In this document: piece after piece, positions 7,394 to 63,135 of the stretch
Layout of the letters: the number at the start of each line of letters is the position of its first letter
Position numbering within the stretch: the first letter of the stretch is position 1
The notes under the pieces: model-generated
What the model saw: the letters and a program-made list of their open reading frames with translations, nothing else
Database searches by the model: none
Told to the model about the DNA's origin: nothing
Virus record (IMG/VR): IMGVR_UViG_3300010163_000004
Location: 72,935-136,934 of that record
Length of the DNA stretch: 64,000 bases
Origin: a virus
Taxonomy: Duplodnaviria; Heunggongvirae; Uroviricota; Caudoviricetes
Reading direction: 5' to 3' (one strand)
Translations under genes and position numbers: made by a program

Positions 7394-7777
7394 TCAATTA
7401 TCATTTTCAACCTTCTTAATTAGTTTCTCTAAATAATCTGCCCTATCTTTGATTGCAATAAGTAATTCATCAAAATCATTCGCATCCTCTATAGCATCAT
7501 ATGTAGTTGAACAAGTACATTGTGGAAACTTTGAATCATCGTTACTAGAAACATTATGAATACAGAATGAACATGCTTCATAATCTATATTATATAATGT
7601 AATAGCAGTACATAACGAACACTTGTAAATATCTCCAAACCCAGTAATTTGGCTAAGTGCTTCAAAAACATGACCAACCCTATTACCAGACATATAAGCT
7701 TCTTCTAGGTCCTTCTTAGTAATACTTCTATATTTCTTAACTAATTTCTTGGCTGCTTCTAGATTTTTTACTTGCAT
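7394..7777 (-). CDS. hypothetical Cys-containing protein (127 aa)
   Basis: ORF track. Confidence 0.5.
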   Translation of the reverse strand: MQVKNLEAAKKLVKKYRSITKKDLEEAYMSGNRVGHVFEALSQITGFGDIYKCSLCTAITLYNIDYEACSFCIHNVSSNDDSKFPQCTCSTTYDAIEDANDFDELLIAIKDRADYLEKLIKKVENDN

Positions 7778-8577
7778 ACGTCAACTATAGTTAATTTAGG
7801 ACTAACTAATTTCCAATTTTTATAAGAATTAGAGATAGCTACCCTATCAAAATTGTTACATAAATTTTTAACCCCAACTTCATTAACTGCATGACAAACT
7901 ATTATTTCAAACTTGGCTTCTGGATATTCCTCCTTAAGTACTTTAAGTTCTCCTAAGAAAGTTCCTCCAGCATCACACAAGTCATCAATAAAAGTAAAAA
8001 TATTAGAGTAGATATTCTTACGATTGGCTATCTCGAAGCCCTCGATTCTTCCAGTTTCAAGATTTCTTTTCTTTTTAAAAAGAATATAACCAAAATCAGA
8101 ATACCTTCTACCATATCTTTCCCATGCCCCATAGTCTGGAAACACTAGATTCTTCAAAGGATCATCAAGATAAGTATGCCACCAATTAAATGCCAAATTA
8201 TTATAACGATTTCCAAGTAATCTAGAAGTTCTTTCTGAGTGTGCTTCCAGAACATGTACCTTTCTATAGCCTAAGCTATTTAACATATTACATACTACTT
8301 TTAAAGAGAATGGACGATTAAAACTCATTACTCTATCCATACGCATAGACATAAGATAAGTAATATACAAATCCCATTCTACTTCTTGTCTGTCTAAAAT
8401 ATCTCCTACTTGCATCAAGAGGAATAAATCCTCAGTATTAGATATTCTGCAAATAACATCAATAGATTCCTTTCTATCTAATTCTTCAGTAAGGAAAAAC
8501 TGAGGCTCTCCATCAGGAAATTTAGTAATATCATACTTAATTTCACTGATTTCCTTGTTGATTAAGTTTAATTTCAT
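7768..8577 (-). CDS. prs: ribose-phosphate pyrophosphokinase (PRPP synthetase) homologue, short form
   Basis: 269 aa. N-terminal KFPDGEPQFF matches the Prs RFSDGE motif. C-terminal PRTase signature FIDDLCDAGGT matches VDDMIDTGGT. Confidence 0.65.
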   Translation of the reverse strand: MKLNLINKEISEIKYDITKFPDGEPQFFLTEELDRKESIDVICRISNTEDLFLLMQVGDILDRQEVEWDLYITYLMSMRMDRVMSFNRPFSLKVVCNMLNSLGYRKVHVLEAHSERTSRLLGNRYNNLAFNWWHTYLDDPLKNLVFPDYGAWERYGRRYSDFGYILFKKKRNLETGRIEGFEIANRKNIYSNIFTFIDDLCDAGGTFLGELKVLKEEYPEAKFEIIVCHAVNEVGVKNLCNNFDRVAISNSYKNWKLVSPKLTIVDVCK

Positions 8578-9007
8578 CTACTACATATTTTAAGATTTCA
8601 TAACTTTCTTCCAGACCTGCCCTATCATCTAGGAGAATATTGTAATAAGGTTTCTTAGATTTAGAGAATATAGAACTACTAATATTTGGAGCAGATAAAG
8701 TATTAGGAGTAATATTTGCTATCCCTACTCGCATACAAATTGTCTGCTTTACCATAATTTCATAATCATCTTCATCAGTGGTGAATAAAATCATTTCAAA
8801 ACCTAGAAGTGAGCATTCTTTAAGTAGTTCTATAACGCAACTATAATCTCCTCCATTATTATGGTAATCGAAAATAGTATTATCAAAATCGAAAGCGACT
8901 ATTAGCTTTCCGTATTTATGGTACTCTTCTAATAGTCGTTTCTTGCAAGCTTCTTTCCCAAAAGGATGATTAAAGTCCATTGTCAATTCTTTGTCTGATT
9001 TCTTCAA
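8543..9007 (-). CDS. HAD-superfamily phosphatase-like protein
   Basis: 154 aa. DxDxT motif VAFDFDNTIFD near the N-terminus. Confidence 0.5.
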   Translation of the reverse strand: MKKSDKELTMDFNHPFGKEACKKRLLEEYHKYGKLIVAFDFDNTIFDYHNNGGDYSCVIELLKECSLLGFEMILFTTDEDDYEIMVKQTICMRVGIANITPNTLSAPNISSSIFSKSKKPYYNILLDDRAGLEESYEILKYVVDEIKLNQQGNQ

Positions 9008-10523
9008 GAGAATATTCTTTCTTCAAGATGCCATCTTCAAAGACGGTCTCTAAGTATCCCTCTTTTTCCTCCTCGATTGAGACCTGGTCGGTAGCAGTAT
9101 ACTTCCCATCCAAACCTTTATAGACAGCAATCAAACCTTTCAAAGAGTTCTTAGTACCATCATCAGTTTTAGGATGTTTGAAGATTTCTTTCAACTCGCC
9201 ATTTACTACGCAAGCAGTAGCCTTAATAGCAAACCCAAGGCTATCTCTACTTGCATACTGATAGGAATATGAACCTACTCCCAGAACGAGATTACAAGCC
9301 GCCATATGAGCGTTTTCCAATCTCAAGTAGATTTGCTTTTGACGTTCCAGAGTAATAGAATCTCCATAAAGCAGACCAACCTTAGTGCTAGGATAGCAGT
9401 AATCCTTCGAAGTAGTATTCCACCCGAAGATTTTGCCAAGCATATAATATGCTCCATAATATTGACCTTCAGATACTTCAACATACTCTGCATCGTCATT
9501 AAATGGAGCATAGCAGCAATAATACTTACCTTCTTTCATTCTAGTATTGAAATGGGGATTAGTTCTCAATCCACAGATTATATCTACTGGGTCTCCACTA
9601 TCAGGACGGATTACTACTCTACCATCACGAGCCATAATGTCTTTTTTCAACTTGGGCAAGAAATTTTCAATTACATTCCAGAAATCCCAAGTATCAGATA
9701 CAATAGAAACAAACCCAGAAGGATACAAATCATTAATTAGACGTTTGAAAGTACCTAGCTCATCTTCCTCCCCTCCAGCACACATTACAGAGTGTTCTGT
9801 TGCTGGAACTGTAGCAGCAATCAATTCCTCGTCTGAATTAGCTCCATAATATTCTTCCAGAGCAGCAATAGCTGGGATAGTCTCACTTCCCACAAAAGAA
9901 GTCATATGTGCCATACCAGATATGATTGCAGCCTCCATACCAGCCATACCTCGCATTGAGAAATCATGGCAGCAAAAACTAAGATTTACATCTGTTGGAA
10001 AACCAGTCTTACAGGCATGACGATGTAACTCTTTCTTATAGAGTCTAGCTCTAGTAGCAGATGTGCATGGCATCCACAGAGTACAACTAATAATAGTCTC
10101 TAGGTAATTAGTTAACCAAAAGAACTCAGGTAAGGTATTCGTAATGGTCATCATAGGAACCCGAATAGGGCACACAGAACCTTCAGGAAGAGCCTTTATA
10201 CGAATTGGTAGATACCCAAGGTCATATAAAGCTTCAATATGTCTGTACCCAACGGATTCAATACCAACAAAGTTGTATACTCTACGATAGAACATCTCCA
10301 CAGCTTCCCTCTTTGGCAGATTAAAGAAGTTTTCTTGAAACTGTTTAATGAGATATTCCTTGATTAGGTATTGAATACCAAATACTACTGAACCTTCGGT
10401 TGCTTCTGGGAAGTATTTATTACTTCTAGGAGTCCAGTTACTATAAACTTGTTCAGTACCTTCTGGGTACATTCTGTGATGGCTTAATTTGTAACCATCA
10501 GTATAACAAATAATTTCTTTCAT
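8970..10523 (-). CDS. nadV: nicotinamide phosphoribosyltransferase (NadV/NAMPT)
   Basis: 517 aa. N-terminus MKEIICYTDGYKLSHHRMYPEGTEQVYSNWTPRS is the characteristic NAMPT start. Length is typical. Lies adjacent to Prs. Confidence 0.8.
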   Translation of the reverse strand: MKEIICYTDGYKLSHHRMYPEGTEQVYSNWTPRSNKYFPEATEGSVVFGIQYLIKEYLIKQFQENFFNLPKREAVEMFYRRVYNFVGIESVGYRHIEALYDLGYLPIRIKALPEGSVCPIRVPMMTITNTLPEFFWLTNYLETIISCTLWMPCTSATRARLYKKELHRHACKTGFPTDVNLSFCCHDFSMRGMAGMEAAIISGMAHMTSFVGSETIPAIAALEEYYGANSDEELIAATVPATEHSVMCAGGEEDELGTFKRLINDLYPSGFVSIVSDTWDFWNVIENFLPKLKKDIMARDGRVVIRPDSGDPVDIICGLRTNPHFNTRMKEGKYYCCYAPFNDDAEYVEVSEGQYYGAYYMLGKIFGWNTTSKDYCYPSTKVGLLYGDSITLERQKQIYLRLENAHMAACNLVLGVGSYSYQYASRDSLGFAIKATACVVNGELKEIFKHPKTDDGTKNSLKGLIAVYKGLDGKYTATDQVSIEEEKEGYLETVFEDGILKKEYSLEEIRQRIDNGL

Positions 10524-10852
10524 GTTTTAAATATAATTATTTAATTTCAGCCATTTCTTATATCCATAAAACCACTGATTTCCTTTTCTAACTCTTAAAG
10601 AACCTGTATTAACAAATATATCTACAATTCCGTGATCTTGTGTATGTAAGCTATATTGTCCATATAATGGTTCCTCTATTTTAAGTATTAGCGGATTTTT
10701 ATTTAGTTTAGGAAGTAATTTACATTTGAATGAAGCTACTAGTATTTCCTTTCTTTTTGTCCTTTCTTCCTTGCGAGCTTCATTTATGTCTCTCCAATAA
10801 TCTCCTACGTCTCCCATAATATATGATTATAATTGTAATAACCCTATTTCTT

Positions 10853-11491
10853 TCATTTTATATACTTATTTACGTATTTTACATATATATCATCAACGCG
10901 CTTTATTGATTCTTTTAGAGAATATCCATTCTTGTAATTCTTTAGAACAAGTCCTATATAAATCTTACTTTTACGATGAATTTTCATTTTTGACTTGTTC
11001 TCTTTCCACCAATCATATTCATTTCTAGGATTAGACCCATAAGTTTTACAAGCAGCTAAATAATCACAAATAAGCTCGATAACGTATTTCTTTGGCATTT
11101 CGGCAGCAATACCTCCATCATCCAAACTATGAATCCAATACTCATAGTGATGAGGATTTCTACCTCTATGATGTAAAAAGGTTTCAGAGTATCCATTTAT
11201 ATTCTTTTCATTAGCTAAAGAGCTTATTTTATCATCCCAATACTTTATAGATCTACTAAATTCAGTATAACTAAATTTAGACCAGTCATGTATTATTCCT
11301 TGCCAGTAAAGACCTAACTGGAAACAATAGTATGCTACCCAATATTTGTGCTTAAGAATTCTAATTAAATGTTTAAATACTCGCATTCTATTATTCAGGT
11401 TTCCTTGACCATAGTATAATGTAATCTCTGCTAGTTTTTCCATTATACCATAATAAAACGCTATCCTCGCTAATATCCACATAAGGATCAA
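10853..11491 (-). CDS. hypothetical protein (212 aa)
   Basis: ORF track. Confidence 0.55.
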   Translation of the reverse strand: MILMWILARIAFYYGIMEKLAEITLYYGQGNLNNRMRVFKHLIRILKHKYWVAYYCFQLGLYWQGIIHDWSKFSYTEFSRSIKYWDDKISSLANEKNINGYSETFLHHRGRNPHHYEYWIHSLDDGGIAAEMPKKYVIELICDYLAACKTYGSNPRNEYDWWKENKSKMKIHRKSKIYIGLVLKNYKNGYSLKESIKRVDDIYVKYVNKYIK

Positions 11492-11652: not shown

Positions 11653-12669
11653 TCATTGTTCTGTTACAATTATAATTCTGTTAAATTCTCTATCTCCAAA
11701 CTCAGTAGTGCTTCCGCAGCCTTTAACTATAAGCTTACCCTCTGGAGCGCCATAACTAATAAGGGCCTTCTTCATAGATTCTGCTCTAGCTACAGCTAAG
11801 TTGTTATTAAAATCTACTGGACCTTCTTCAGAAGCATATCCTTCAATCATATATGACTTACCACTATTTGAAATATAAGCTGCTAACTCCGATACTGCAA
11901 CATTAGAAGTTGTAGAGATTTCAGAAGAGTTCTGTATGAACTGAATTTTAGGTGTAAGAAGTTCTACCTTAGTAACTACTATAGTATCAGTTTTAATTAT
12001 TTCTACTGGTTTACGAGATTCTAATTCGCTATTCTTAGCTCTCAACTCGTTAATAGCAGCATTAAGACTTTCTACTTCAGTGTCACTATATAGTTTCATC
12101 ATAGGAAAGTTTCCTTTACTAGACTTAAATCGGTAAGTAGCTCCAACATAAACATTTACTTCCTGATTTAGAGGAGTAGTCTTTGGAAGTAGTATATACT
12201 CTGGAGTAACATTTAGTGCCCAATTATCGGTAATATTAAAGTTGCATCTAATTGCACCTCTTGCAGATACATTATTATAAACATCACCATAAGTATGATA
12301 CCAACCAGCACCTATCAGTAATATAGGCTCAAATAAACGTCTAGAACCTTCGTATCCACAAATAAGATTAGTTAGATTAGTAGTTACATTAGCTGTAAGG
12401 TTATGAGAATCGAAGAACGTTTTATTGCCTTGATTCATACCCGCCATCATATCCAACTCCAGTCCAAAGATAGGAGTAATTTCTTTACCTACAGCAATAT
12501 TTACTAATACATCATGAGGCTCCGCCCAACTTCTTGAGTTATCCCAAATTGTAGTACCTACATTACCAGAAACATACCAGTTATCTTTCAAACTTCCAGT
12601 TTCAACAACTTGTGCACCAGCAAACGCGCACATTAAACACAAACAAATAATACTAAAAATTTTCTTCAT
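11653..12669 (-). CDS. OmpA-family outer-membrane protein (signal peptide, beta-barrel region, C-terminal OmpA peptidoglycan-binding domain)
   Basis: 338 aa. Signal peptide MKKIFSIICLCLMCAFAGAQ. C-terminal YMIEGYASEEGPVDFNNNLAVARAESMKKAL matches the OmpA_C motif. Confidence 0.7.
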   Translation of the reverse strand: MKKIFSIICLCLMCAFAGAQVVETGSLKDNWYVSGNVGTTIWDNSRSWAEPHDVLVNIAVGKEITPIFGLELDMMAGMNQGNKTFFDSHNLTANVTTNLTNLICGYEGSRRLFEPILLIGAGWYHTYGDVYNNVSARGAIRCNFNITDNWALNVTPEYILLPKTTPLNQEVNVYVGATYRFKSSKGNFPMMKLYSDTEVESLNAAINELRAKNSELESRKPVEIIKTDTIVVTKVELLTPKIQFIQNSSEISTTSNVAVSELAAYISNSGKSYMIEGYASEEGPVDFNNNLAVARAESMKKALISYGAPEGKLIVKGCGSTTEFGDREFNRIIIVTEQ

Positions 12670-12703: not shown

Positions 12704-13165
12704 CTATAATTTCTTTATGCAATTTTCTTTCTTAGTTTCATATTCCTGGCTGGCCTCTCTAGCTAACCTATCTGCGAGATTATTCATCTGAGAAAAGAAG
12801 TCTGAACTTGAAGTATGTCCTTTTACCCAACAAAAATCTATGTTAGAACAAAATTGTTTTGCCTTATCTAAGACTTTGTCATATAAACTCCATAACTTTA
12901 TATTCTTCTTTCTTTTCCATCCTTTAGTAGTACATCCTATAACGTACTGAGAATCTGAGTAAACAGTCAGAAATTCGATTTTACGACTTACTGCATTTAG
13001 AGCATAAATTACTGCTAACAACTCACATTTATTATTAGTAGTATTAGGAATCATTTTACTAAATTCATAGACTTTTTTACCATCTATTACGAACACAATC
13101 CCTATTCCTCCTGTGTTTCTAGAGGGACTAAAAGCTCCATCAGTAAAGACCTCTAGTCTACTCAT
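12704..13165 (-). CDS. rnhA: ribonuclease H (RNase HI). The ORF ends with TAG, followed 5 codons later by an in-frame TAA.
   Basis: 153 aa. VFTDGA...NNKCELLAVIYAL...TVYSDSQYV...WVKGH...LADRLA are the RNase H catalytic motifs. Confidence 0.85.
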   Translation of the reverse strand: MSRLEVFTDGAFSPSRNTGGIGIVFVIDGKKVYEFSKMIPNTTNNKCELLAVIYALNAVSRKIEFLTVYSDSQYVIGCTTKGWKRKKNIKLWSLYDKVLDKAKQFCSNIDFCWVKGHTSSSDFFSQMNNLADRLAREASQEYETKKENCIKKL

Positions 13166-44933: not shown

Positions 44934-45027
44934 TCTAACGTAGTGGTGGACCGCCACTACACTCACTCTATGAATTTTTGGAATCTAGGTAATTGCCCTC
45001 CAAATATAAAAGTCGGAATTTATAATA

Positions 45028-45039
45028 ACCCCAGGGGGC
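45028..45039. repeat. GC-rich motif AACCCCAGGGGG, copy 2
   Basis: See 44921-44933. Confidence 0.5.
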
Positions 45040-45257
45040 TATTTATATAAAGTACCTGTACCGGCTTTCCCCTTAATATATAAAATATGTATAATATTTG
45101 AATTAGAATTTTTTAACTTTGCGTTTAACTTTTCGGAGGTTATTGTTGTATATAACTAAAAAGAAAACAATTATGATTACAGACTTAGAAACATTGTTAA
45201 ATTAGGACTAGTTTAAATAGCTAGTTGAGGCAATTAATACGAATCAAGAATATTATA

Positions 45258-45575
45258 TGTCTGGTAATGGGCTAACTATTAAGTCCGAATCTACCGACGA
45301 TTCTTTGTTCTTATTAATATCTTATGAAAGATAGAAGGAAGAAAGCTGCCTAGCTAATGAAGAGGTAGACCAATTCCAGAAATATTTAGAATCTCTAGAT
45401 GATAATTTATTTATAGATGTATGCGAATATCTAGGAGAACTTGAAGTTCGTAAAATACAAGGATGCTTAGAAAGCAGTAAGTTAGAAACAGTAAGAGCTG
45501 GTATTGCTAAATTCAAAATGGCACTGTCAGATATAGCTAAAAAGAGAATTGAACAACTGAAAGCTTATGTATGAA
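45258..45575 (+). CDS. hypothetical protein (105 aa) with one in-frame TAG
   Basis: Hand translation: MSGNGLTIKSESTDDSLFLLISYER[TAG]KEESCLANEE...KAYV*. Confidence 0.45.
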
Positions 45576-45712
45576 TAGATTGCTCAAATGAGAATACTAT
45601 TAGCTAATATCAACGCTACTATGCAGGCTTTATTTCACGAAAATGAACAATTAAGAAAAGAACTAGAGAAATTGGCAGCAGAAAATAAATCTCTAAAAGA
45701 GAAATAAGTTAC

Positions 45713-45784
45713 TGCCCTATGGTGTAATGGTCAGCACAGATGACTCTAAATCATTTAGTCTGGGTTCGAATCCTAGTAGGGCAA
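45713..45784 (+). tRNA. amber suppressor tRNA (anticodon CUA), derived from tRNA-Gln. Predicted to decode UAG as Gln.
   Basis: Cloverleaf: acceptor TGCCCTA/TAGGGCA (U1-A72), D arm GTGT-AATGGTCA-GCAC, anticodon arm GATGA-CTCTAAA-TCATT, variable TAGT, T arm CTGGG-TTCGAAT-CCTAG, A73. D arm, 8-9, T-loop and discriminator are shared with tRNA-Gln(UUG) at 29745-29815. Confidence 0.85.
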
Positions 45785-45803
45785 CGCCAAAAAATTAATA
45801 GTT

Positions 45804-46031
45804 ATGATAAAATTAAATGAGAATTATGTAGTAACTCCAACAGGGGCTAAAACTCTTATTATAGAAGAGGGAGACGATTGGAATAAAGTTTGTGAGAAGG
45901 TAGTTGGAAGTAAGTTTGATTATATCTTTGTACCTCAAGAATTTGAGAATCAAGCCTGCTATTTTCTTCCACAAATAACAGTTCAAGGAAAACAGATAGG
46001 TAAGATATGTACTTATAAGGTATTGAAATGA
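45804..46031 (+). CDS. hypothetical protein (75 aa)
   Basis: ORF track. Confidence 0.5.
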   Translation: MIKLNENYVVTPTGAKTLIIEEGDDWNKVCEKVVGSKFDYIFVPQEFENQACYFLPQITVQGKQIGKICTYKVLK

Positions 46032-46342
46032 AACAGTGTGCAGTTGTATTAAATGGAAATGATGTTGTCAAAGTCTCTAATTTAAAGAGAAAATATGACA
46101 AAATAATGAACAATTCTAATATGAAAATATTGGAGGAATGTGATAAGGAAATGTTAGATGAGAAGTACAACTATTGGAATAGAACATTAAATAGAAATAC
46201 AGAAGAGGAGAAAAAAGAGGAGGCTAAGATGCACCACTTTAAAAATCCGAAAACTGGATGCTCTATAACAAGTATCTATCCAGATTTGGAAGAATGTAAA
46301 TCATATATAAAAGACTGGATAGATTATGTTAAACTTGATTGA
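46028..46342 (+). CDS. hypothetical protein (104 aa)
   Basis: ORF track. Confidence 0.5.
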   Translation: MKQCAVVLNGNDVVKVSNLKRKYDKIMNNSNMKILEECDKEMLDEKYNYWNRTLNRNTEEEKKEEAKMHHFKNPKTGCSITSIYPDLEECKSYIKDWIDYVKLD

Positions 46343-46565
46343 AAAATATAATGAACTTACTAAATCGGAATTAGAGGAACTAGCAGAAATAACACTATTA
46401 GCTACGGAATCTTTAATTAATACTATTGTAGAAGAAGGAAAACAAAACGAACAATGGTTCTTAGATTATCTAGACAACTTAAATAAGCTAAGTGTATCGT
46501 ACTAATATATCAGTAGCCACAGATACTACGATAGAGAAAGAATTATTAACAACAGTTTAAAGGAT

Positions 46566-46760
46566 ATGATAAATTATAAGAAAACAATAACTAATATTCA
46601 TGAGCTGCTTCCAGAGCTAGACTTGGATGCATTATTTAAAATAATGGAGGCTATAGTAGAAGAAACCACTATAACTACAAGTTGGCCCAATAGCATCCGT
46701 TCGGATAAACCTTATTGGGAAGAACCAAACAGGATCACTTGTACGTATAATAGTAAATAA
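46566..46760 (+). CDS. hypothetical protein (64 aa)
   Basis: ORF track. Confidence 0.45.
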   Translation: MINYKKTITNIHELLPELDLDALFKIMEAIVEETTITTSWPNSIRSDKPYWEEPNRITCTYNSK

Positions 46761-46803
46761 AAATAGGCGAGCCTAGACTTAATTGTCTAAGTTCGCCTAT
46801 TTT
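46759..46803. terminator. bidirectional intrinsic terminator: 10-bp stem AAATAGGCGA/TCGCCTATTT with a nested stem, flanked by A and T runs
   Basis: Seen directly at the point where plus-strand and minus-strand genes converge. Confidence 0.6.
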
Positions 46804-47460
46804 GTTATGCGTTAACTTTTAGATATTTTATCCATGAAAACATCTTTCTCTATCCTTCTAGATACTATAAATTGTCTTCATTCATATAAGCTTCTTCTTC
46901 AAAGCTTACATCTCTGTAGCAATCATTTTGAGAATCTTTAAGTCTTAATAGCCGTATAATTAAATACTCTAATCCATACCAGATATAGAAAGATGGAATA
47001 GCTAACCATACCTATTCTAATCCAAATAATATAGATATAAGTATTGCAAACGCTATTGCACATTCCAAAATCTATACTGAATGGATATTCTCGTGATTCT
47101 TATCCTCACCAGTTAAATCCGACTTAGTAAATATTAATCCAAACAGATTAATTACTTTATAGCCTCCAAACGGTATAATATTATTTTTAATTATCATATT
47201 ATATAATACCAATCATTACGTTCTATAACTCCTTTCTCCTTGAGCTATTTATTATCTAAATGATAATCTCCATTTCTAAAATTTAATTCATTCTTAGTAT
47301 AGTCCCAATAAAAATACCCTTTCCAGCCGGGGAGTAATAAAGTACGACCAGTAGCCGCATAAAGAGTTGCTCTATTATAGTCCATATTACTTATTAAATA
47401 TAAACAGTAAATAAAGATATATCTTAAGTATAAATTCTTTAATTAATTTAACTACAGCCT

Positions 47461-49129
47461 TCATTGCTTTCTTGTTTTAATTAATCCATAATTTCCTTTC
47501 TTTAATCTAGTAGTAGGAATCCATCCATTATCTAGAATAGATCTATGCCCACTTGGTTTATGTATCTTAGCTCCATCTTCGTGTTTCCATTTAGCTGCGT
47601 TTCTAGCAAAGTTAGCACGCTTCTTCTGAAGAGGAGTAGCATTAGGATTGTTTAATACAGATTTAGCATGTTCCTATACAGACTATCCTGCAGCCTTAGC
47701 AGAGGCTGTAAATTTACCTCTATTTTTCTCTTTAATATGAATGCCTGACCCGTTTTTAAAAATTGGACATCCAAATATTTTCATTTTACCTCCACTTTTA
47801 TGTTTTTTAGAAAGTCCTATTGAAGAACTTCCATAATGTCCTTTGTGACCTATATTTTTTAGTATATTATTTTTAAACATACCTATTAATTCTACAGGCT
47901 ATGTTCCTTCCTATCCTACAAATAAATAATGCCTAAAGCCATTATCATCCTATTTAATTCTAGCCCTTTCAGCTCCAGCATTAGCCCTAACTTCATTTTC
48001 TATAGGAAATTCCATTTCAAAATCTTTATTGGCAATAGTTTTTATTTCATTCATATATTCATTATATATTTTCTTATATTCAGAGCTATTTCCAGATAAT
48101 TTAGCAGCTTCTAACCTTTTGATATATTTATCTTTATTTACTTTCTAGCTAGCCATTAAAAATATATCGTGATCAGAAGACCCTCCAGTGAGATAACCCC
48201 ATCCCTTATATGGTTTTGACGAAGTAACAAAAAAATTATTTCCAGGCTAAGTATAAAAATTAAAATCATTGTCTTTTATAAACTAACGTCTAGTAGACTA
48301 ACCTTTCTTTATAGGTCTTCTGACAATTCCTATGTAGCCCTCTGGACTTCCATTAGTATAGCCAAAGGCAGTACCAAAGTCATTTGATGTATATAAAGCA
48401 TTTTCAAAGTCTTCCAGTCCTGCTATATTAGTTCCAGTACTATTTGGTATTGTTGTAAGTGCCTTTCTAGCAGCTTCTTCTGAAGGCATATCAGCAGGTA
48501 TAAATCCAAGCTTTTTAGCTTCTGCTATATCTACTCCTCTTACAAAAGTATTATGTCTATTTACTACATGATCTGTAACTCTATCTAATTGTGCGTCATT
48601 AAATACTATAGTAGCTTTAGGTTTAATATCAGTATAATTATACTATTTCATAAATTTTTTTAAATGATTATAGTCTAATATATTACCTATTAAATTATTT
48701 GGAATATTATTCTTAATATAATTCCATCCCCTCCTAACTAAAGGAGCACTTAATCCTGGAACAAAGGCTAATCCTGCACTTAGGGCAGCCTATCCATAAT
48801 TTCCTAATCTTAACTAATTTCCTATATCTGCTATATCAGCAGCAGTATCTAATCCCGGAATAAATCCAGTAGCAGTAATTCCTAGGTCTATTATATCATC
48901 TGTAGAAATACCAGAACTTCTAGGCCTTTTCCCAACTATAGTTACTTCATCTAGAGTATTATTCGGGGGACTATAAGTTACCTACTTTCCGGCTAATTCG
49001 GCAGCTTTTGCTTTTCTATCCATCCTCTAACTATATAACCTCTATCTAGTTATATTGTCTCCTTTCCAAAAGGCTTCTAATTCTTCCTTCGAGGCTTTAT
49101 CAAAATCAGGTATTGGCATATTTGTTCAT
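47461..49129 (-). CDS. TAG-recoded gene (about 556 codons, at least 14 in-frame TAG, ends at TGA). Product unknown, basic C-terminus. Possibly a virion or internal protein.
   Basis: Hand translation of the minus strand. ORF-track fragments 47683..47880 and 48298..48489 are pieces of this single frame. Confidence 0.6.
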
Positions 49130-49251
49130 TTTTATTATTTTAAGTTATTCTATTTTATATTAATTTGTATCTTACAAAGAATATTAATATACTTGAAAAG
49201 TATCAAATAAATATAGATAAATGTGATAAATGATTAAATGAATTATGACTA

Positions 49252-50166
49252 ATGGACAAAAGTAAAATTACAAAACAAAATGGGAACATAGCTTTCGAAG
49301 AGGAAGCTCATATTTATTATGATGTTACAAAGCCAGAACAGAAATTTATATCTGTAACGACTTTAATTCATTCTTTCACCCAACCCTTTGATAAAGAGTT
49401 CTGGTCAGCATACAAAAGTTTAGAAAAGCTTCTTAATAAAGATTCGTGGGCTATTGAGAAAAAGTCTTTACTAAATACTAAGAAATTTGATAGAACTTTA
49501 TTAGAATTACATGGGATTAGTGAAAATGATTTTAATAGGGAACAGCAAGCCATCTTAGATGCATGGGATATAGAGAACAGAAACTCTTGCGAGAGGGGAA
49601 CTAGAATACATGCAGATTTAGAAAACTCTTTTTATAAAAAGAAAAAGAACATTGATATTAGTAAGTTCGAAATAGGAGGCAAATTTGAATGCGAACAAGG
49701 TAGAACAACTCTAGACTTAGAGAATGGAATATATCCAGAATATCTGATTTCAAGAGTTTCGGATGATGGAAAGCTGAGATTAGCTGGTCAAATTGACTTG
49801 TTAGTTAAAAAAGGCAACAAGATTATCATAGGCGATTTTAAGACTAATAAGAAAATAGAAACTAAAAGCTTTTTCAATAGTAAAACTAAGTCATCTGTTA
49901 AGATGAAATATCCTCTAAACAATCTAGATGATGTTAACTATTATCATTACACACTTCAGCTTAGCACTTATGCTTGGATGGTTCAGAAGTATAACCCAGA
50001 ATTTGAGATAGAGGATCTGGTACTTATACATTTTGATCACAGCGATAACATGACAATATATCATGTTCCTTATCTAAAAGATGAAGTAATAAGAATGCTT
50101 TCTTTTTATAAGAAAGAATCTATATTGGCAGAAAATAAAAAGAAACGTCAACGTATTGAATATTAA
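49252..50166 (+). CDS. PD-(D/E)XK-family nuclease (Cas4, RecB or lambda-exonuclease-like fold)
   Basis: 304 aa. GQIDLLV ... IIGDFKTNKK fits the D...(D/E)xK motif. Confidence 0.5.
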   Translation: MDKSKITKQNGNIAFEEEAHIYYDVTKPEQKFISVTTLIHSFTQPFDKEFWSAYKSLEKLLNKDSWAIEKKSLLNTKKFDRTLLELHGISENDFNREQQAILDAWDIENRNSCERGTRIHADLENSFYKKKKNIDISKFEIGGKFECEQGRTTLDLENGIYPEYLISRVSDDGKLRLAGQIDLLVKKGNKIIIGDFKTNKKIETKSFFNSKTKSSVKMKYPLNNLDDVNYYHYTLQLSTYAWMVQKYNPEFEIEDLVLIHFDHSDNMTIYHVPYLKDEVIRMLSFYKKESILAENKKKRQRIEY

Positions 50167-50168
50167 TT

Positions 50169-50384
50169 ATGACACTAGAAGAAATAGAAGAAAGATGGAA
50201 AATATGCAGACGCTGTCCAATATGTAATCAAGAAGATGCAATATGTAATGGACAGTTGTATTTAAATCCAGAAAACAATGACATAAGCATTAGTCCAAAA
50301 GAAGGATATATAAAAGGATGTGGATGTCTTTTGGAATTAAAGATACCTAATGAGAAGAAGCATTGCCCTGCAAAGAAATGGTAA
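50169..50384 (+). CDS. small Cys-rich zinc-ribbon protein, tandem paralogue 1
   Basis: 71 aa. CRRCPICN...GCGCLLELK...HCPAKKW. Confidence 0.5.
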   Translation: MTLEEIEERWKICRRCPICNQEDAICNGQLYLNPENNDISISPKEGYIKGCGCLLELKIPNEKKHCPAKKW

Positions 50385-50611
50385 AGAAATGGATTAAAGC
50401 AATATTTACTAAACCTTTAGTAATATTAAAGAGCATATATTTCCATATATTTGGAATTAATCAAGATTTAGCAACCACAAGATTAAATATTTGTAGTGCT
50501 TGTCCTCATAAATTGCAGACTTCATTTGGAGAAGTATGTGAGGAATGTGGTTGTATACTAGAGAACAAAACTAGAATAGAAGATGAACATTGTGATTTAT
50601 GTAAATGGTAA
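50363..50611 (+). CDS. small Cys-rich zinc-ribbon protein, tandem paralogue 2
   Basis: 82 aa. CSACPH...CGCILENK...HCDLCKW. Confidence 0.5.
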   Translation: MPCKEMVKKWIKAIFTKPLVILKSIYFHIFGINQDLATTRLNICSACPHKLQTSFGEVCEECGCILENKTRIEDEHCDLCKW

Positions 50612-50619
50612 AATGAATT

Positions 50620-51222
50620 ATGGAAACTTTAAGAACAGAATTAAACAGTAATGAGAAACTAGCATTAGCTATGACTGGTATGGAAGGTACAGGAGAACAC
50701 TTTATCTTGAATGGAGAGGCTGCAGATAAAACTCTATTAAGAGAAAAACAGGAAAAATTCAATACAGCAGTAGATGAATTAGAAGATAAATTCTCTAAAC
50801 ATAATGCAGCTTTAGAATCTTACGCTAAATCATTATCTGAGGATATGAATGGTGTAGAAATTATGCCTATGTATGGGTATGCATTAATTAAACCTTTCGA
50901 ACAAAATCCGTTTCAAAAAATTAAAACTACTAAGAGTGGATTAATTACAGACTTAGGTGGATTTGCTCCAACATATAAATCTAATGAAACAGGGGAAATA
51001 GAAGAAGAACAGCAATTTATTAAAGTGGGTACTGTTATTGAGGTTGGACACAAGTGTGAGTTCTTAAAACCTGGAGATATAGTATTCTATACAATAGCTA
51101 GCGAGTGCATGGTTCCATTCTATAAGTTTGGATTTGTTGTAGTTAATGAGAACAGAATTATAGCTGTAGTTAACGAAAAGCTAACTGAAAGAAGAAACGA
51201 ATTGAAGTATGGAAACAATTGA
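50620..51222 (+). CDS. protein with a C-terminal GroES or T4 Gp31-like co-chaperonin fold (tentative)
   Basis: 200 aa. LIKPFE...KSGLITD...GTVIEVG...LKPGDIVFY resembles the GroES mobile loop and beta-barrel. Confidence 0.35.
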   Translation: METLRTELNSNEKLALAMTGMEGTGEHFILNGEAADKTLLREKQEKFNTAVDELEDKFSKHNAALESYAKSLSEDMNGVEIMPMYGYALIKPFEQNPFQKIKTTKSGLITDLGGFAPTYKSNETGEIEEEQQFIKVGTVIEVGHKCEFLKPGDIVFYTIASECMVPFYKFGFVVVNENRIIAVVNEKLTERRNELKYGNN

Positions 51223-51455
51223 TGAAAAAATTTACTTTAAGCCCGGAGATTGTGTTACTTTACGGTAGTGTAAAGTAATGCATTCTCCAGTTATGCTGGT
51301 TCTAAGAAGAGAAGCAGCTTTATTTAAAGATAACCAAGGATTACGAGGATTAAGATGTAGATGGTTTACTGATACTGGACTTATGTAGGAAGCAGTATTT
51401 AATACTAAGGACCTTTAGCTTGTTAGAGAGAATAAATAAAAAATATAGAAAAGCA

Positions 51456-52757
51456 ATGGATAAGATATAGTTTGACCCTGAATTGATGCGTAATATTAAA
51501 ATTATTTACGGAAATGTAGACTTAGATGACAAAACCTTAAGATAGCTATATTAGACTTGGACAACTAATCCTGATATTATTAGAAGAACTGTACAATAGA
51601 AAATGCCCAAGACATAGAAAACATACTTTGATGCTCCAGAAATGCCATCATTACCTACAAGATTAGAATCTCTTCCTACTACTGAGATAGCTCAAGATGA
51701 TTTAAGAGGTGTTAAAGATTTTAAAACAGCTTTTAGAGCTGCTAGAGAGAGGGGATTAAAATAGTTTATGTGGGGGAATTCTACATATACTACAGACTTA
51801 GAATAGCCTTCAGATAAACCTAAACAATCTTCTGCCGTTTAGATTCCAAAATCAGATACTTAGATTAGTATAAAGGCTCCAGATCTAACTGCCACAACAA
51901 AAGGAACTACTTGGGGTAGAGGAGTATAGACTATCACAGGAAGCAGTTAGCCAGCTAGTAAATAGTCTTCAAATAAACCTAAAGCAAATCCTGTATAGGT
52001 TACTACCAGTAGGTACACTATGGGAAATACAGTACAAGGAAGAGATTTTGGAATTGGTAGAGGAATCGGCAAAGGTTTTATGGGCTTCCTAAACTGGTTA
52101 AATAAAGGAGCTGCTAGTAATTAGTATAGTAAAAGTAAGTAGGTCAACCCACTTAGTTATTATCAACAAGGAGGAACAATGAATAATCAACAAGAATTAC
52201 AAAAAGCATTTATAGCATATCTAATACAGGATGCTACTTAGCAAGGAGTACAAATTCAATCTGAACAAGATTTATAGGCTTATGCTGAACAATTAGGTGA
52301 AGACGGTATTAAAGCTAAGTATCAGGAATTTATGCAAAAAATGCAAGGAGGAGTAATGGCTAGGCTTGGAGCTAAGCTTGAGTATTATAAGAAGCTAAAA
52401 GGAGTATGTCCAGAAGGAGAAGAGCTTGTATATTTTAAGCAAGGCGGTAGAATCTGTAAAGCTTGCCAGAAAGCACAAAAAGGAACTAAAGTTACTAAGA
52501 AAGCTAATGAAGTTGATAAATTTAAGGCTGGAAGAGCTTAGTATAAGAAAGATATGAAATCTGCTAGGGACGAAGCCTCGAGAGATTCTATATCAATCAA
52601 TAAATATAATGATTAGGAAACTATGGCCAATAAAGGACATAAGGGTAATTTCCAGAAAGGGAAATGGGTTCCTGATAGAAAACAATATGCTAAGAAAGAC
52701 GCTTGTGGTTCAAAAATGAAAGTCAATAAGTGCGGTTCCAAAATGAAAAAGAAATAA
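51456..52757 (+). CDS. TAG-recoded late gene (433 codons, about 17 in-frame TAG, ends at TAA TAA). Product unknown.
   Basis: One frame is open except for TAG from the upstream TAA (about 51350) to 52757. The ORF-track piece 52332..52541 is its 3' segment. Confidence 0.6.
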
Positions 52758-52794
52758 TAAGATTATCTAATATATATGATAATGATTAATGATT

Positions 52795-53355
52795 ATGAAT
52801 GTATTTAGCTATAACACTCTAACTAAATAGCTAGAAATAAATGAACCAGAGATATTGCTAGTTAAGGAATTTAAGGCTCTAATCTAGAGGGATAAATCTG
52901 TAGAAAAGGATAGAGCTACTAGAGAACTATCTTACATTTATTTAGCTATAGACTGGAAAAGTCCGTACAGTTAGTATTCGGAACATGAACGACATGACGA
53001 AGCTATTAGTGATTCTGGATTGACAGAATCAGAATTTAATGACCCTATATTTAGAGCAGCTTGTAGGAAATACAGAGCGTTACAAGATTCAAATAAATCG
53101 ATAAAATTACTAGAAGCAGCTAAAAGAGCCGCAGACTAGTTTATTGATTATTTCGAAACTATTGTAGATTTAAATGAGCGTGATAATAACGGCAAACCAG
53201 TATTCCAAGCTGAAAAAGTAATGAAGGAAATGGCTACCCTTCACAAAGTTCATGAAGAACTAATAACACTAGAAGACTAGGTTAAGAAAGAACTTACTGA
53301 ACAATCTACTGTTAGAGCCGGAGCTGTGGATGGTTTTGACCCAGGAGACTTTTAA
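52795..53355 (+). CDS. TAG-recoded gene (186 codons) immediately upstream of the large terminase. Candidate small terminase or packaging-associated protein (position-based guess).
   Basis: Hand translation MNVFSYNTLTK[TAG]LEINEPEILL...DGFDPGDF*. Confidence 0.45.
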
Positions 53356-53357
53356 TT

Positions 53358-55724
53358 ATGCCAAGAAAAAAGAAGATATTACCTGAAGAAATATAGAATA
53401 TTGTAGATTAGGTAAGAGAAAAAGAATAGAAAGAAGATGCTAAAGAAGCTAGAGAATTAGTATAGAAAATAAGAGAGGAAAGGGTCAGAAATTCTGACTA
53501 TTGGGATGTTAAAATAGGAGATAAAATAGAAGTATTTGACCCTACCTTATCTTATGAAATAACCGGATATAGACCTATTGATGAAACTCATGGATTGGAT
53601 TTTAACCCAGATTGGTTTACCGAGACTAGGGAAGTATATAAACGAACTGGTCAATATTGTCCCTACCTTAGAGATAGTAAGCGGTATAACGAATTTTGGA
53701 AAGAGCAATATAGAAGATGTAAGTATGGAATGACAGTTAATGAATACACTATTACTGGAGATAATTACTTCTTCTTAAATTTCTATTAGTTACCTACTAT
53801 TGACTAGTAGAAAGCCTCTGGTGAAGGTACTGATAATGACTTCCCAATATTCTTTGCATCACATTATATGTTCTTTCATTATCTACAGATGGCTAGAGTG
53901 CTACATAAGCACGCGGCTTTAATGAAAGCTCGTTCTATTGGATTCTCTGAAATAAATGCCTCTCTTTCTGCTCGTATGTACTCTGTTATTAGAAGAAGTA
54001 GGGTTATGATTACTTGCTTTAACGACACCTTCCTTAAGGGTACCTTTAGTAAGTTTGACAATGCTCTTACATTCTTAAATACTTGTACTGGAGGAGGATT
54101 TTTTAAATTGCGACTTATTGACCAGGATTTGAGAAAGAAATCAGGTAAACAAATCAAAATAAATGGTTAGTTTGAAGACGTAGGATTTAAATCTGAGGTT
54201 GTAGCAATTAACGGAGCTAAACCATCTAACATTCGTGGAGACCGTGTAGATTTATTAATATATGATGAAGCTGGTTCCTGGCCTGGACTTGATACCGCTG
54301 TGGTACAAGGTCAAGAACTTTGTGAAGTTCAAGGTATGCCTCGTGGAACAATGTTGTTTGGAGGTACTGGCGGTGATATGGGTGCTCCTCTAGAGGGCTT
54401 AAAAAAGATTTACTATAATCCAAGAGCATATAAGATTCTTCCATTTAGACATAATTGGACTTAGGATGGGACTACTATAGAGAGTGGATTCTTTATTCCA
54501 TACTTTATACAATCTTTGAATCCAGAATTTATGGACCACAGAGGAGTATGTAATACTGTGGAGTATAAGAAATTCTTATAGGAGGAGCGAGATAATCTGT
54601 TAGCTGTACCAGAAGACTACCTAAAGAAATGTGCTGAACGTTGTTGGAATGCAGAAGAAGCATTTAATCTAGAAGGTGTTAATAAGTTTAATAAAATCTT
54701 AGTTGCCGAATAGATAGCTAATATAAGACTTAAACAAATTGGCCCAAAACCTGAATGTGGTTATATTGATTATTTTTACAAAAATAATAAACATACTTAG
54801 GATAACATTGATGGTTTTAAATGGATTCCTAATAGCAATGGTAAAGTAAAAATTCTAGAGCATCCAATATGGTCTGACTTATATAAAGAACAAATGGAAA
54901 AGCTTAGATAGGAGGCAGAAGATAATGGCTAGGATTTTGAAGTTCCAGTTTATAAAGAAATGCGAGACTTATATGTAGCAGGTATAGACGGTATTGATAT
55001 TGGAGCGAATTAGACTTCTAAGGAAACCAGAGACCCGTCTGATTTCTGCATAACGATTAAGAAACGTGCGTTTGGTATGAATGACCCTCAGTATGTTGCT
55101 ATGTACAAGGATAGACCTGGAGACATCAGAGAAGCCTATAAAATAGCTATGTGTTTAGCTCGCTATTATAATTGTAAAATAAATATAGAAGCTACTCGTA
55201 TGGGTATGGTTACTTGGGCTAGAGAAAAAGGATGCCTTAACTATTTTATGAAGCGCCCAAGAGCTACTCTAACTGACGTTAGAAATGGAACTACTAAATA
55301 GTATGGAACTCCTGCTACAAAAACTATAATCGAATAGCATACTGATTTAACAGCCGCCTTTATAGAAGACTATTGCCATACTATATGGTTCGAAGAAATG
55401 CTAGAATAGTTCACTGCATATAATGATGAAAATAAGGGTAAGTATGATATTGTAGCCGCTGTAGGTATGACTGAGTTAGCAGACCAAGAGCTATCAGGAA
55501 GACAGCCCGTACTTGTGGAGAAAGAAGTTGAATAGTTCCAAGATTTTGGTTACTATTACGACGAGAGAGGAATTAAAAGATTTGGAGTTATTCCAACTAA
55601 GAAAACTCCTGAACTTAATATGCAAAGAAACGAATATGATGACCCATACAGAGTTGAAACAAGTGATCCTAGAATATATGAGGGACTTGTACAAAATGGA
55701 GTATATAGGCGGACTAGATATTGA
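53358..55724 (+). CDS. terL: terminase large subunit (788 codons, about 19 in-frame TAG, ends at TGA), TAG-recoded
   Basis: ATPase Walker B VDLLIYDEAGSWPG. C-terminal RuvC-like nuclease motifs DLYVAGIDGIDIGAN...DIVAAVGMTE. ORF-track pieces 53595.., 53868.. and 55077.. are all in this frame. Confidence 0.8.
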
Positions 55725-55974
55725 GAGTTTAGACCCGGTTGGGTATAAAGTCTCTTTTAACTTTGATAGGTCAGAAATGCCATTAGTAATAATAGCAGAT
55801 TTACCAGACGAAGAATTTCTGCCATTTATTAAGGAAGAATTAAGAAGTAGGAAGTTACAAAGAGTTAAGTATTATAACGCTACTAAACTTCCTCCAGAAC
55901 AACATAATTTATGTTATGAAAGAGAAGGAATTAATAGACAAGACAAACGAGGCTATTGCGGAACTTGTATATGA
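55636..55974 (+). CDS. small protein in the +1 frame overlapping the terminase 3' end. Standard-code ORF 55513..55974; an internal Met start at 55636 is more plausible.
   Basis: ORF track. Overlaps terL by about 90-210 nt depending on start. Confidence 0.35.
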   Translation: MMTHTELKQVILEYMRDLYKMEYIGGLDIESLDPVGYKVSFNFDRSEMPLVIIADLPDEEFLPFIKEELRSRKLQRVKYYNATKLPPEQHNLCYEREGINRQDKRGYCGTCI

Positions 55975-58087: not shown

Positions 58088-58088
58088 T

Positions 58089-58820: not shown

Positions 58821-58830
58821 TTATTACAAT

Positions 58831-59562: not shown

Positions 59563-59717
59563 GAGAAAGGCTATTAAAAGGTATGAGGATTTTCTAAGAA
59601 AACTCAAAAAGGGATATAAACCAGATTATCAAGATATTCTGAATCTAATTTGTTTTATTAACCTACCTGTAAGACTAGATAATCACGAATTTATTAAATA
59701 GCAATTATTAAACTAGA

Positions 59718-63130: not shown

Positions 63131-63135
63131 ACAAT

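Follow-up and report, generated by a model that had tools for sequence, protein, structure and literature searches.

A probable NARP1 operon with an accessory HAD-superfamily phosphatase in a candidate crAss-like gut phage

Three overlapping minus-strand genes in the 64,000-nt stretch of phage DNA that we analyzed (the window) raise the question of whether they make NMN by way of PRPP, as the original prediction held, or regenerate NAD+ by another route, and of what the small phosphatase encoded in their middle contributes. The three open reading frames were confirmed at 8970-10523, 8543-9007 and 7768-8577, and the motifs quoted earlier were found again: the 269-aa protein has KFPDGE and FIDDLCDAGGT, and the middle protein has DxDxT in the form DFDNT. 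The superfamilies had also been named correctly as NAMPT-like and Prs-like, by Pfam and PHROG profiles, and HAD, by catalytic motifs and fold. We conclude that the operon is very probably NARP1, in which the pair of Adps and Namat turns ADPR, ATP and nicotinamide directly into NAD+ (Osterman et al., bioRxiv 10.1101/2024.02.11.579819; Lan et al., PMC12774641). With distinctly less certainty, we favor reading the whole cassette as an operon with the standard code from the early region of a crAss-like gut phage, in which NARP1 is joined by an accessory phosphatase (Table 1).

Table 1. Predicted genes of the putative NARP1 operon and neighboring open reading frames, in window coordinates.
Feature	Coordinates	Strand	Remarks
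DUF5662 protein	10853..11386	-	
96-aa ORF	10527..10817	-	between the DUF5662 gene and Namat; phrog_27571, E 3.7e-5
Namat	8970..10523	-	517 aa; first gene of the operon; nicotinamide ADP-ribose transferase, NAMPT superfamily
Capless (C0-type) HAD-superfamily phosphatase	8543..8980	-	145 aa; accessory; slot between Namat and Adps
Adps	7768..8577	-	269 aa; third gene; ADP-ribose pyrophosphate synthetase, Prs superfamily
127-aa ORF	7394..7777	-	overlaps the Adps stop by 10 nt

The middle ORF was listed with a TTG start and 154 aa; since its homologues begin MDFNHPF, the ATG at 8980 is the most likely start codon. The Namat gene (stop codon 8972-8970) then overlaps the HAD gene by 11 nt, and the HAD stop codon (8545-8543) lies within a 35-nt overlap with Adps, whose own stop codon (7770-7768) is passed by the ATG of the next ORF at 7777. 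On the upstream side, the stop codon of the 96-aa ORF is separated from the Namat ATG by 3 nt, and this ORF had no homologue in the first 90 loci examined (L001-L090). Homologues of the 127-aa ORF with 45-51% identity were located downstream of Adps in eight related loci, and Pfam, NCBIfam and PHROG profile searches matched it to no family. The DUF5662 protein is a possible lineage-specific fourth partner of the operon. Homologues of the 517-aa, 269-aa and middle proteins occur in 2,023, 1,446 and 82 phage records, respectively; because each has many homologues, the three genes are not chance ORFs, and the three are found together in about 100 distinct loci. Around the operon, scans for promoters and terminators did no better than on shuffled sequence; Bacteroidota promoters are not sigma-70-like.

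The 517-aa protein matched Pfam NAPRTase and NAMPT_N and phrog_448 (E 2.5e-181), and its best solved relative was the SPbetaL1 Namat (9W5X/9W5W; E 3.8e-146, 491 bits), compared with 224 bits for mammalian NAMPT. By BLASTP it scored 482 bits against the FADO Namat, 461 against that of SPbetaL1 and 372 against that of DyoEdafos, versus 203 bits against the KVP40-like Nampt of Vibrio phage CZ01, which served as the NARP2-type reference. Its phage matches as a whole form two groups, one at or above ~300 bits and a KVP40-like one at or below ~200 bits. The published adenine-clamp signature of Namat, GSX-phi-X-phi-X-phi-TRD, is present in the clamp helix as GSYSYQYASRD, with Tyr at positions 3, 5 and 7 and with the Thr before RD replaced by Ser, as in other crAss-like copies, and the corresponding site of the NARP2-type Nampt reads GGGLLQQLDRD. 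In the clamp loop, whose third residue (Arg, Lys or Tyr) or the one after it stacks on the adenine, the window protein has RSNKY--FP (K36-Y37), a loop that includes such a residue and is exactly that of the FADO Namat, which belongs to an operon validated in vivo. The NAMPT-type catalytic core is also kept, with the catalytic His and residues matching R306, D308, D13, Y15, F189 and R192, while D215 of Namat is Glu (E214) in the crAss clade.

The 269-aa protein matched phrog_619 (E 3.6e-51) and fell below the Prs cut-offs, scoring 56.8 bits against TIGR01251 (cut-off 113) and 15-53 bits against the Prs equivalog models of NCBIfam (cut-offs 296-536). Its BLASTP scores were 73-84 bits to the validated Adps of SPbetaL1, FADO and DyoEdafos, at just 23-32% identity, and 50 bits to E. 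coli Prs. On our reading of an alignment of nine sequences with one Prs outgroup (E. coli), it has features found only in Adps, namely RMDR, E[PA]HS, a KxR[ND]xxTGxI loop and the lack of an N-terminal helix, and its DDLCDAGGT is without the Prs threonine, as in Adps. The lysine of its loop KKKRNLETG aligns with those of HKQRNFHTG (SPbetaL1) and DKRRPRANV (E. coli Prs), a match by alignment and not by residue numbering; the catalytic loop lysine is K162 in the SPbetaL1 Adps and K197 in B. subtilis Prs. Judged by these sequence features, the protein groups with the Adps clade and would not be a true PRPP synthetase.

In the discoverers' operational definition, NARP1 is called when a Namat homologue lies no more than 10 genes from Adps, and here a single gene lies between the two. 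From homology to the characterized enzymes, a host NADase of the SIR2, TIR or SEFIR type would cut NAD+ into ADPR and nicotinamide, Adps, with ATP as donor, would pyrophosphorylate ADPR at its free ribose to give ADPR-PP, and nicotinamide would displace the pyrophosphate in the Namat reaction. As Namat would thereby regenerate NAD+ directly, NMNAT is unnecessary, and the missing NMNAT, previously counted as a gap in the pathway, is not a gap because NARP1 uses no adenylyltransferase. Among the standard-code ORFs scanned at 722-44848, we found no NMNAT, Nudix, Macro or RyR domain and no CTP_transf_like domain. The earlier suggestion of a role against NAD+-depleting immunity (Thoeris, DSR, SEFIR) was judged correct and coincides with the predicted role of NARP1. 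The enzymology originally proposed is not supported and is in our view highly improbable; it would have PRPP made by the 269-aa protein and NMN by the 517-aa protein, acting as NadV/NAMPT, with a host or unrecognized NMNAT completing NAD+ in a NARP2-like manner. Both proteins do sit in the Prs and NAMPT superfamilies, and a genuine Nudix-Nampt-Prs-HAD cluster is known in Mucilaginibacter, but the clamp signature and the BLASTP scores place the 517-aa protein with validated Namats rather than with the NARP2-type Nampt, and the 269-aa protein misses the Prs cut-offs and groups with Adps. Moreover, the SPbetaL1 Adps showed no Prs activity in the discoverers' in vitro assays, yet converted ADPR and ATP to a product, and Nmnat accompanies phage NARP2-type Nampt in 94% of cases, in contrast to the scanned ORFs of the window.

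The putative NARP1 operon shares with those of Bas63, SPbetaL1 and FADO (Osterman et al. 2024) a phage Adps adjoining a Namat with the clamp signature, the lack of NMNAT, the predicted conversion of ADPR, ATP and nicotinamide to NAD+ and the predicted countering of SIR2/TIR/SEFIR depletion. It differs in its gene order, with Namat first and Adps following, in the extra gene between them, in the strong divergence of its Adps from the assayed enzymes and in its host range, Bacteroidales for a crAss-like phage. To our knowledge, NARP1 has not yet been tested in Bacteroidales. With NARP2, or NadV-NatV, of Vibrio phage KVP40 it has in common NAD+ synthesis by a phage with a NAMPT-superfamily enzyme, whereas NARP2 runs on PRPP, requires NMNAT and has a Nampt without the clamp signature.

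The HAD gene, to which the original prediction gave no specific role, is the interesting part of the operon. Its product carries all four catalytic motifs (DxDxT, S/T, K and DD) on a Rossmannoid HAD fold, and the fold assignment is confident; within the family, DxDxT, K119 and DD are invariant and T76 is nearly so. No Pfam family matched the protein, and its second-best structural match was the 3'-phosphatase domain of T4 Pnkp, which acts on ribose 2'/3'-phosphates. Membership of the family of the BT_0820 HAD phosphatase (PDB 2obb; NF046079) was rejected, the score being 17.3 bits against a cut-off of 165, and a literature search found no paper mentioning BT0820. Literature searches likewise found no described HAD partner of NARP1 or of NadV-Prs; NARP1 is already known, and the HAD variant appears to be undescribed.

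The HAD gene adjoins Adps/Namat in 113 of 150 loci, or 12 of 22 clusters once redundancy is removed, and the gene order takes at least five forms. These loci extend over Crassvirales, Herelleviridae, Lak and Aeromonas phages, Flavobacteriia, Saprospiraceae and Paenibacillus/Cohnella, and they include Bacillus phages and bacterial clusters that have an NrtR-type gene at their flank. In Lak phages the HAD gene still lies beside Adps, although Namat is ~225 kb away. Of the 1,446 phage records with an Adps-like gene, 82 have the HAD gene. In Mucilaginibacter the family accompanies Nudix-Nampt-Prs, and in a 735-kb phage PnuC-NadR, both of them sets of NAD-salvage genes outside NARP1, and about one quarter of its loci have no NAD gene close by, with neighbors that are uninformative. 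Among the 54 listed family representatives of at least 185 aa, we found none fused to Adps, to Namat or to any other NAD gene; the sole fusions were to a GIY-YIG endonuclease and to a nucleoside 2-deoxyribosyltransferase-like domain, the latter a hint of a mononucleotide substrate. A role as a periplasmic NMN phosphatase was considered for one homologue (L090) and dropped, as no signal peptide is present in its N-terminal extension. On balance, the HAD protein is likely to be functionally tied to NAD+/ADPR salvage.

The slot occupied by the HAD gene is variable. In sister phages that share the synteny DUF5662-Namat-X-Adps, X is the HAD gene, an Adpp homologue (37% identity and E 5e-27 to the validated Gary Adpp; Pfam Macro) or nothing, and in DyoEdafos the same Adps/Namat slot holds RyDEP. 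Adpp is a validated phosphatase of ADPR-1''-phosphate (ADPR-1''P) with a Poa1p-like Macro domain. The window operon thus resembles NARP1-AP (Adps-Adpp-Namat of Vibrio phage Gary; Osterman et al. 2026 preprint) in having three genes with a phosphatase between the core pair, and the true Adpp homologue of its sister phages lies in exactly the HAD slot. The two phosphatases are not homologous, one having a HAD fold (by homology, with an Asp nucleophile and Mg-dependent chemistry) and the other a Macro domain, and a tblastn search with the Gary Adpp gave no match across the window. RyDEP (2026 preprint), encoded between Adps and Namat, is likewise an accessory enzyme and turns an ADPR derivative into ADPR for NARP1, which resembles the role proposed below for the HAD protein, but it is a glycosidase on 2'/3'cADPR signals with an R12/RyR fold, not a phosphatase fold. 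The HAD and Macro types occasionally occur together, in at least three loci (an Adpp-like gene with HAD in L159, a MacroD-type gene with HAD in L114/L117). This co-occurrence argues against simple redundancy with Adpp and weakens a model in which HAD replaces Macro everywhere.

From position and linkage only, we infer that the HAD protein would act upstream of Adps by dephosphorylating a phospho-ADPR species that Adps cannot use, giving ADPR; the chances that it supplies ADPR in this way seem to us evenly balanced. The leading candidate for the substrate, put forward tentatively, is ADPR-1''P, made by RES-domain NAD+ phosphorylases (aRES), in which case the HAD protein would correspond, without homology, to the Macro-domain Adpp found in NARP1-AP. 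aRES are commonest in Bacillota (10.4%) and Bacteroidota (4.7%), and it is in these phyla that the hosts of the HAD-type phages are found; the published Macro-type operons come from phages of Vibrio, Pseudomonas and Aeromonas only. An alternative substrate is 2'-phospho-ADPR from NADP+ cleavage.

A reading that keeps the NARP1 operon while giving the HAD protein a substrate other than ADPR-1''P, so that it complements rather than replaces the Macro Adpp, is unlikely in our estimate. The candidates would be 2'-phospho-ADPR from NADP+ cut by the same NADases, NADP+ itself, which would yield NAD+, or the product of an unrecognized NAD+-cleaving defense. The presence of HAD alongside Macro genes in the three loci named above points this way, as do the structural match to T4 Pnkp and the linkage to NAD-salvage sets working without ADPR-PP, and the bacterial HAD beside NrtR would fit a general role in recovering NAD from every derivative. 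Set against this are the exact exchange with Adpp in the slot of sister phages and the complementary host ranges, of which equivalent function is the simplest explanation. It is very unlikely that the HAD protein is a generic helper, such as an inorganic pyrophosphatase pulling the Namat reaction forward or a 5'-nucleotidase on AMP or NMN, or an unrelated passenger. HAD-family pyrophosphatases and NMN/NaMN nucleotidases exist, and the deoxyribosyltransferase-like fusion and the quarter of loci without nearby NAD genes would fit such roles; however, capless HADs generally use large substrates rather than PPi, an NMN nucleotidase would counteract salvage, and the linkage of a passenger would not persist over so many gene orders and several phyla, nor would it remain beside Adps in Lak phages. 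Beyond the proposed release of ADPR from ADPR-1''P, it may be, though we consider it doubtful, that HAD forms a second, non-homologous class of NARP1-associated phosphatases, perhaps for a phospho-ADPR not handled by Adpp (2'-phospho-ADPR, or the product of an undiscovered defense common in Bacteroidota/Bacillota). In that case the Adps/Namat slot would be a general docking site for interchangeable ADPR-restoring enzymes (Adpp, RyDEP and HAD), and the NrtR-linked bacterial trio would serve housekeeping NAD+ recycling.

Depleting NAD+ is among the means that bacteria most often use against phages, and NARP1 is the countermeasure most common in phages. The present analysis places NARP1, at the confidence given above, in crAss-like phages, a group that ranks with the most abundant human gut viruses, and indicates that it is accompanied by a widespread HAD phosphatase beyond current Pfam families, which is also found in Lak megaphages and, beside an NrtR-type regulator gene, on many bacterial chromosomes. 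RES-type NAD+ phosphorylases are most frequent in Bacillota and Bacteroidota, and no Macro-type Adpp has been reported there; should the HAD protein take over the function of Adpp, this would account for the escape of phages of these phyla from aRES. If it acts on another substrate, it would point to a further NAD(P)+-breaking route in bacterial defense.

The three minus-strand open reading frames that the original prediction had described as NadV (NAMPT), a short Prs and a HAD phosphatase are present (see table), and all of the sequence motifs quoted for them were found in their products. The 517-aa and 269-aa proteins very probably form a NARP1 pair, judging from sequence comparison. The published NARP1 pathway has two steps: Adps adds pyrophosphate to ADPR, giving ADPR-PP, and Namat combines this product with nicotinamide into NAD+. 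Adjacent Prs-like and NAMPT-like genes in a phage, without an NMNAT, match this layout. Pfam, NCBIfam and PHROGs searches placed NAPRTase and NAMPT_N domains in the 517-aa protein, and its best solved relatives, 9W5X/9W5W (E 3.8e-146, 491 bits; mammalian NAMPT, 224 bits), are SPbetaL1 Namat according to the paper depositing both structures. BLASTP scores were 482 bits for the FADO, 461 for the SPbetaL1 and 372 for the DyoEdafos protein versus 203 for the NARP2-type enzyme, and among phage records (n = 2,023) a clear gap separated matches of at least about 300 bits from KVP40-like and T4-like proteins at about 200 bits or less. The SPbetaL1 Namat structure paper defined a Namat-specific clamp helix (GSX-phi-X-phi-X-phi-TRD) that carries adenine-stacking aromatic residues, and a clamp loop. 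When the window protein was aligned by MAFFT to three validated Namats and a KVP40-like Nampt, its clamp helix read GSYSYQYASRD, against GSFTYQYNTRD in the validated Namats and GGGLLQQLDRD in NARP2-type Nampt; its clamp loop, RSNKY--FP, matches FADO Namat exactly, and all catalytic-core residues are conserved but D215, which is Glu.

Against the Prs model TIGR01251 the 269-aa protein gave a weak match (56.8 bits, cut-off 113), but its match to phrog_619, a phage family, was strong (E 3.6e-51). It scored 84, 78 and 73 bits with SPbetaL1, FADO and DyoEdafos Adps and 50 bits with E. coli Prs. In a small alignment, whose contrasts were read here and are not published criteria, it shares with all Adps a missing N-terminal helix, RMDR in place of RQDRR in E. 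coli Prs, E[PA]HS in place of DLHA, the loop KxR[ND]xxTGxI in place of KRRPRANVS, and DDLCDAGGT, in which the threonine of Prs is absent. The NAMPT and Prs superfamily assignments held in the Pfam, NCBIfam and PHROGs searches; identity as true NAMPT and Prs was not supported, Namat and Adps being closer. Among the standard-code ORFs scanned with Pfam between 722 and 44848, none had an NMNAT, Nudix, Macro or RyR domain, in agreement with the earlier remark that no NMNAT is recognizable nearby; this absence, then read as a gap after NMN in a PRPP-dependent route, is explained because NARP1 requires no NMNAT. By homology to assayed enzymes, Adps would convert ADPR and ATP to ADPR-PP, and Namat would combine ADPR-PP with nicotinamide to form NAD+. 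The arrangement originally imagined is found in a bacterium, in Mucilaginibacter loci (L123:279-6351, L124:2556-6342) with the order Nudix, NARP2-like Nampt, true Prs-like gene and HAD; in L123 a SIR2_2+TPR gene is inserted into the cluster.

Features of the probable NARP1 operon and other genes in the window
Feature	Positions	Strand	Length	Remark
Adps	7768-8577	minus	269 aa	
HAD gene as listed	8543-9007	minus	154 aa	TTG start
Namat	8970-10523	minus	517 aa	
OmpA-like outer-membrane protein	11653-12669	minus		OMP beta-barrel + OmpA domains; just upstream of cassette
RNase H, candidate ORF	12704-13165	minus	153 aa	match from batch scan pooled over ORFs
Amber-suppressor tRNA (anticodon CTA)	45713-45785	plus		at strand switch

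No Pfam family matched the middle protein even at E ≤ 0.1; the BT0820 NCBIfam model matched it weakly (17.3 bits, cut-off 165), and phrog_1238, which it also matches, is mislabelled 'phosphoheptose isomerase'. In alignments of diverse homologues DxDxT (D40, D42, T44), K119 and D127-D128 are invariant and T76 is nearly so, and the AlphaFold2 model is confident (pLDDT 89, pTM 0.84). On these invariant motifs and this model, the protein is a predicted HAD phosphatase with intact catalytic residues, from an uncharacterised family of about 886 clusters at 50% identity among 1.84 billion representative proteins. Because homologues begin at MDFNHPF, its gene most likely starts at the ATG at 8980, giving 145 aa. 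Neighbouring genes overlap at three junctions: Namat (stop 8972-8970) runs past this ATG, HAD (stop 8545-8543) ends 35 nt inside Adps (ATG 8577), and Adps (stop 7770-7768) runs past the ATG (7777) of a 127-aa ORF. A 96-aa ORF stops 3 nt ahead of the Namat ATG. The cassette is a tightly packed, probably translationally coupled unit. The operon is a mosaic. Its closest relatives share 91-99% DNA identity with it between 10480 and about 8237, a stretch that takes in Namat, HAD and the N-terminal part of Adps; identity drops to 57-77% over the C-terminal two-thirds of Adps (7798-8237), and is lost beyond about 7798 (7400-7798), with unrelated sequence downstream, which points to a recombination breakpoint within Adps. 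Within the lineage, identity is mostly 90-98% for Namat, 67-97% for HAD and 45-73% for Adps, and HAD and Adps occur as reshuffled alleles beside a near-constant Namat. Protein P0377, encoded on a 183,912-bp contig, is a chimera of a DUF5662 N-terminus and an Adps C-terminus closely resembling the window's C-terminal allele; it resembles the outcome of a natural deletion in which Namat, HAD and the N-terminal part of Adps were lost.

The window comes from a crAss-like phage. It holds 22 tRNA genes (15799-45785), mostly on the minus strand among early genes. The late plus-strand region (51-63 kb) is TAG-recoded: between 51000 and 63200 the standard code gives only short ORFs and TAG read-through gives seven of 248-794 codons, and on the plus strand from 45000 to 64000 the stop-free stretches of at least 200 codons grow in total from 506 to 4,175 codons with TAG read-through, with no effect of TGA read-through. 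TAG recoding of late genes is described in crAss-like and Lak phages. The NARP1 operon, whose stops are TAA and TGA, belongs to the early region, where the standard code is used. Upstream of the cassette, the RNase H match most likely belongs to the candidate ORF in the table. One of the ORFs scanned between 26668 and 44848 matched tRNA_lig_CPD (2H cyclic phosphodiesterase; Pfam, E 8.5e-8) and could serve tRNA repair or ADPR cyclic phosphate processing.

We fetched 80 loci from the wider phage group of the window, anchored on the upstream DUF5662 gene. Among those with the identical synteny DUF5662-Namat-X-Adps, X was HAD in 48, a 164-aa Macro protein in 13 and empty in 2; the lineage is therefore polymorphic for the occupant of the accessory slot. 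The empty state is seen in sister phages (L200 and L215, 7515-9883), in which a Namat about 89% identical to that of the window is followed directly by Adps. Vibrio phage Gary Adpp, an experimentally validated ADPR-1''P phosphatase, shares 37% identity (E 5e-27) with the Macro protein, which keeps the AHQ histidine and GCGLAGGDWD motifs and has a Pfam Macro score of 35 bits (Gary Adpp, 31 bits). De-duplicated IMG/VR operons fell into 72 distinct versions with HAD, 13 with Adpp and 2 with an empty slot, and the exchange of HAD and Adpp is a non-orthologous displacement in place. In the DyoEdafos operon the same slot is filled by RyDEP, a cADPR glycosidase; there, a polynucleotide kinase-annotated gene immediately follows Namat. 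In locus L056 a fusion of a P-loop kinase (AAA_33) with an NT5C-type HAD nucleotidase lies between Namat and HAD. Pnkp-like enzymes may be recurrently linked to NARP1 (L056:6970-8001; L084:6283-7284).

The HAD gene accompanies Adps and Namat in every annotated phage example inspected. It occurs in 82 INPHARED records (1,446 have an Adps-like gene): crAss-like phages including the cultured DAC15/DAC17, all Lak megaphages, 54 Bacillus cereus-group Herelleviridae, one Vibrio phage and one Aeromonas phage. Gene order varies: Namat-HAD-Adps in Crassvirales and in Flavobacteriia chromosomes, Adps-Namat-HAD in Bacillus phage BPS10C, Adps-HAD-Namat in Aeromonas phage PhAER-3 (HAD 28% identical) and Saprospiraceae chromosomes, and HAD-Adps-Namat in Paenibacillus/Cohnella chromosomes. 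Both partners adjoin HAD in about 70 of 77 HAD-anchored IMG/VR loci, the exceptions being mostly contig-end cuts, and are present in 41 of 71 bacterial and archaeal genome loci. Among non-redundant HAD clusters (60% identity, n = 22), 12 were linked to both genes, 2 to one, and 2 further to other NAD-salvage sets (Mucilaginibacter Nudix-Nampt-Prs, and PnuC-NadR in a 735-kb phage). In that uncultured phage (LR756503.1; L090:9479-14064) the order is TonB-dependent receptor, HAD, PnuC and NadR, with neither Adps nor Namat within 12 kb. In Lak megaphages HAD and Adps are adjacent with Namat about 225 kb away (in Lak-B7, 419,242-420,540 versus 194,887-196,356), which ties HAD to the Adps step. A gene combining Nudix and NrtR winged-helix domains borders nearly all chromosomal trios (loci L100-L160, e.g. 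L104, L117, L127), and the Paenibacillus cluster additionally holds PnuC and NadR. ADPR is the effector of NrtR. The neighbourhood of the chromosomal trios suggests that bacterial NARP1 is part of NAD+ recycling controlled by NrtR, which is related to Nudix proteins and regulates NAD synthesis (Rodionov 2008).

From its position, linkage and enzyme class, HAD would strip phosphate from a phospho-ADPR species, making a substrate usable by Adps. Since the slot exchanges HAD with Adpp, the leading candidate substrate is ADPR-1''P, the product of aRES. The aRES preprint describes Macro-type operons from Vibrio, Pseudomonas and Aeromonas phages only; its table mentions 'MACRO' 129 times, never for Bacillus, Prevotella or crAss-like phages. 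It reports aRES as most frequent in Bacillota (10.4%) and Bacteroidota (4.7%), and the HAD-type phages have their hosts in these two phyla. A different substrate, such as 2'-phospho-ADPR from NADP+ or NADP+ itself, is a serious rival, because HAD occurs together with a Macro gene in L159 (Adpp-like) and L114/L117 (MacroD-type), against strict equivalence to Adpp, because family members also accompany genes for NAD salvage that makes no use of ADPR-PP, and because NAD genes are absent nearby in about a quarter of HAD loci. Fusion proteins do not discriminate between these candidate substrates.

NARP1 and its three-gene form with a Macro phosphatase (NARP1-AP) are already known; the searchable literature describes no HAD partner of NARP1 or of NadV-Prs. 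Both the breadth of HAD, across crAss-like, Lak and Bacillus phages and bacterial clusters beside NrtR, and its allelic exchange with Adpp appear to be new.
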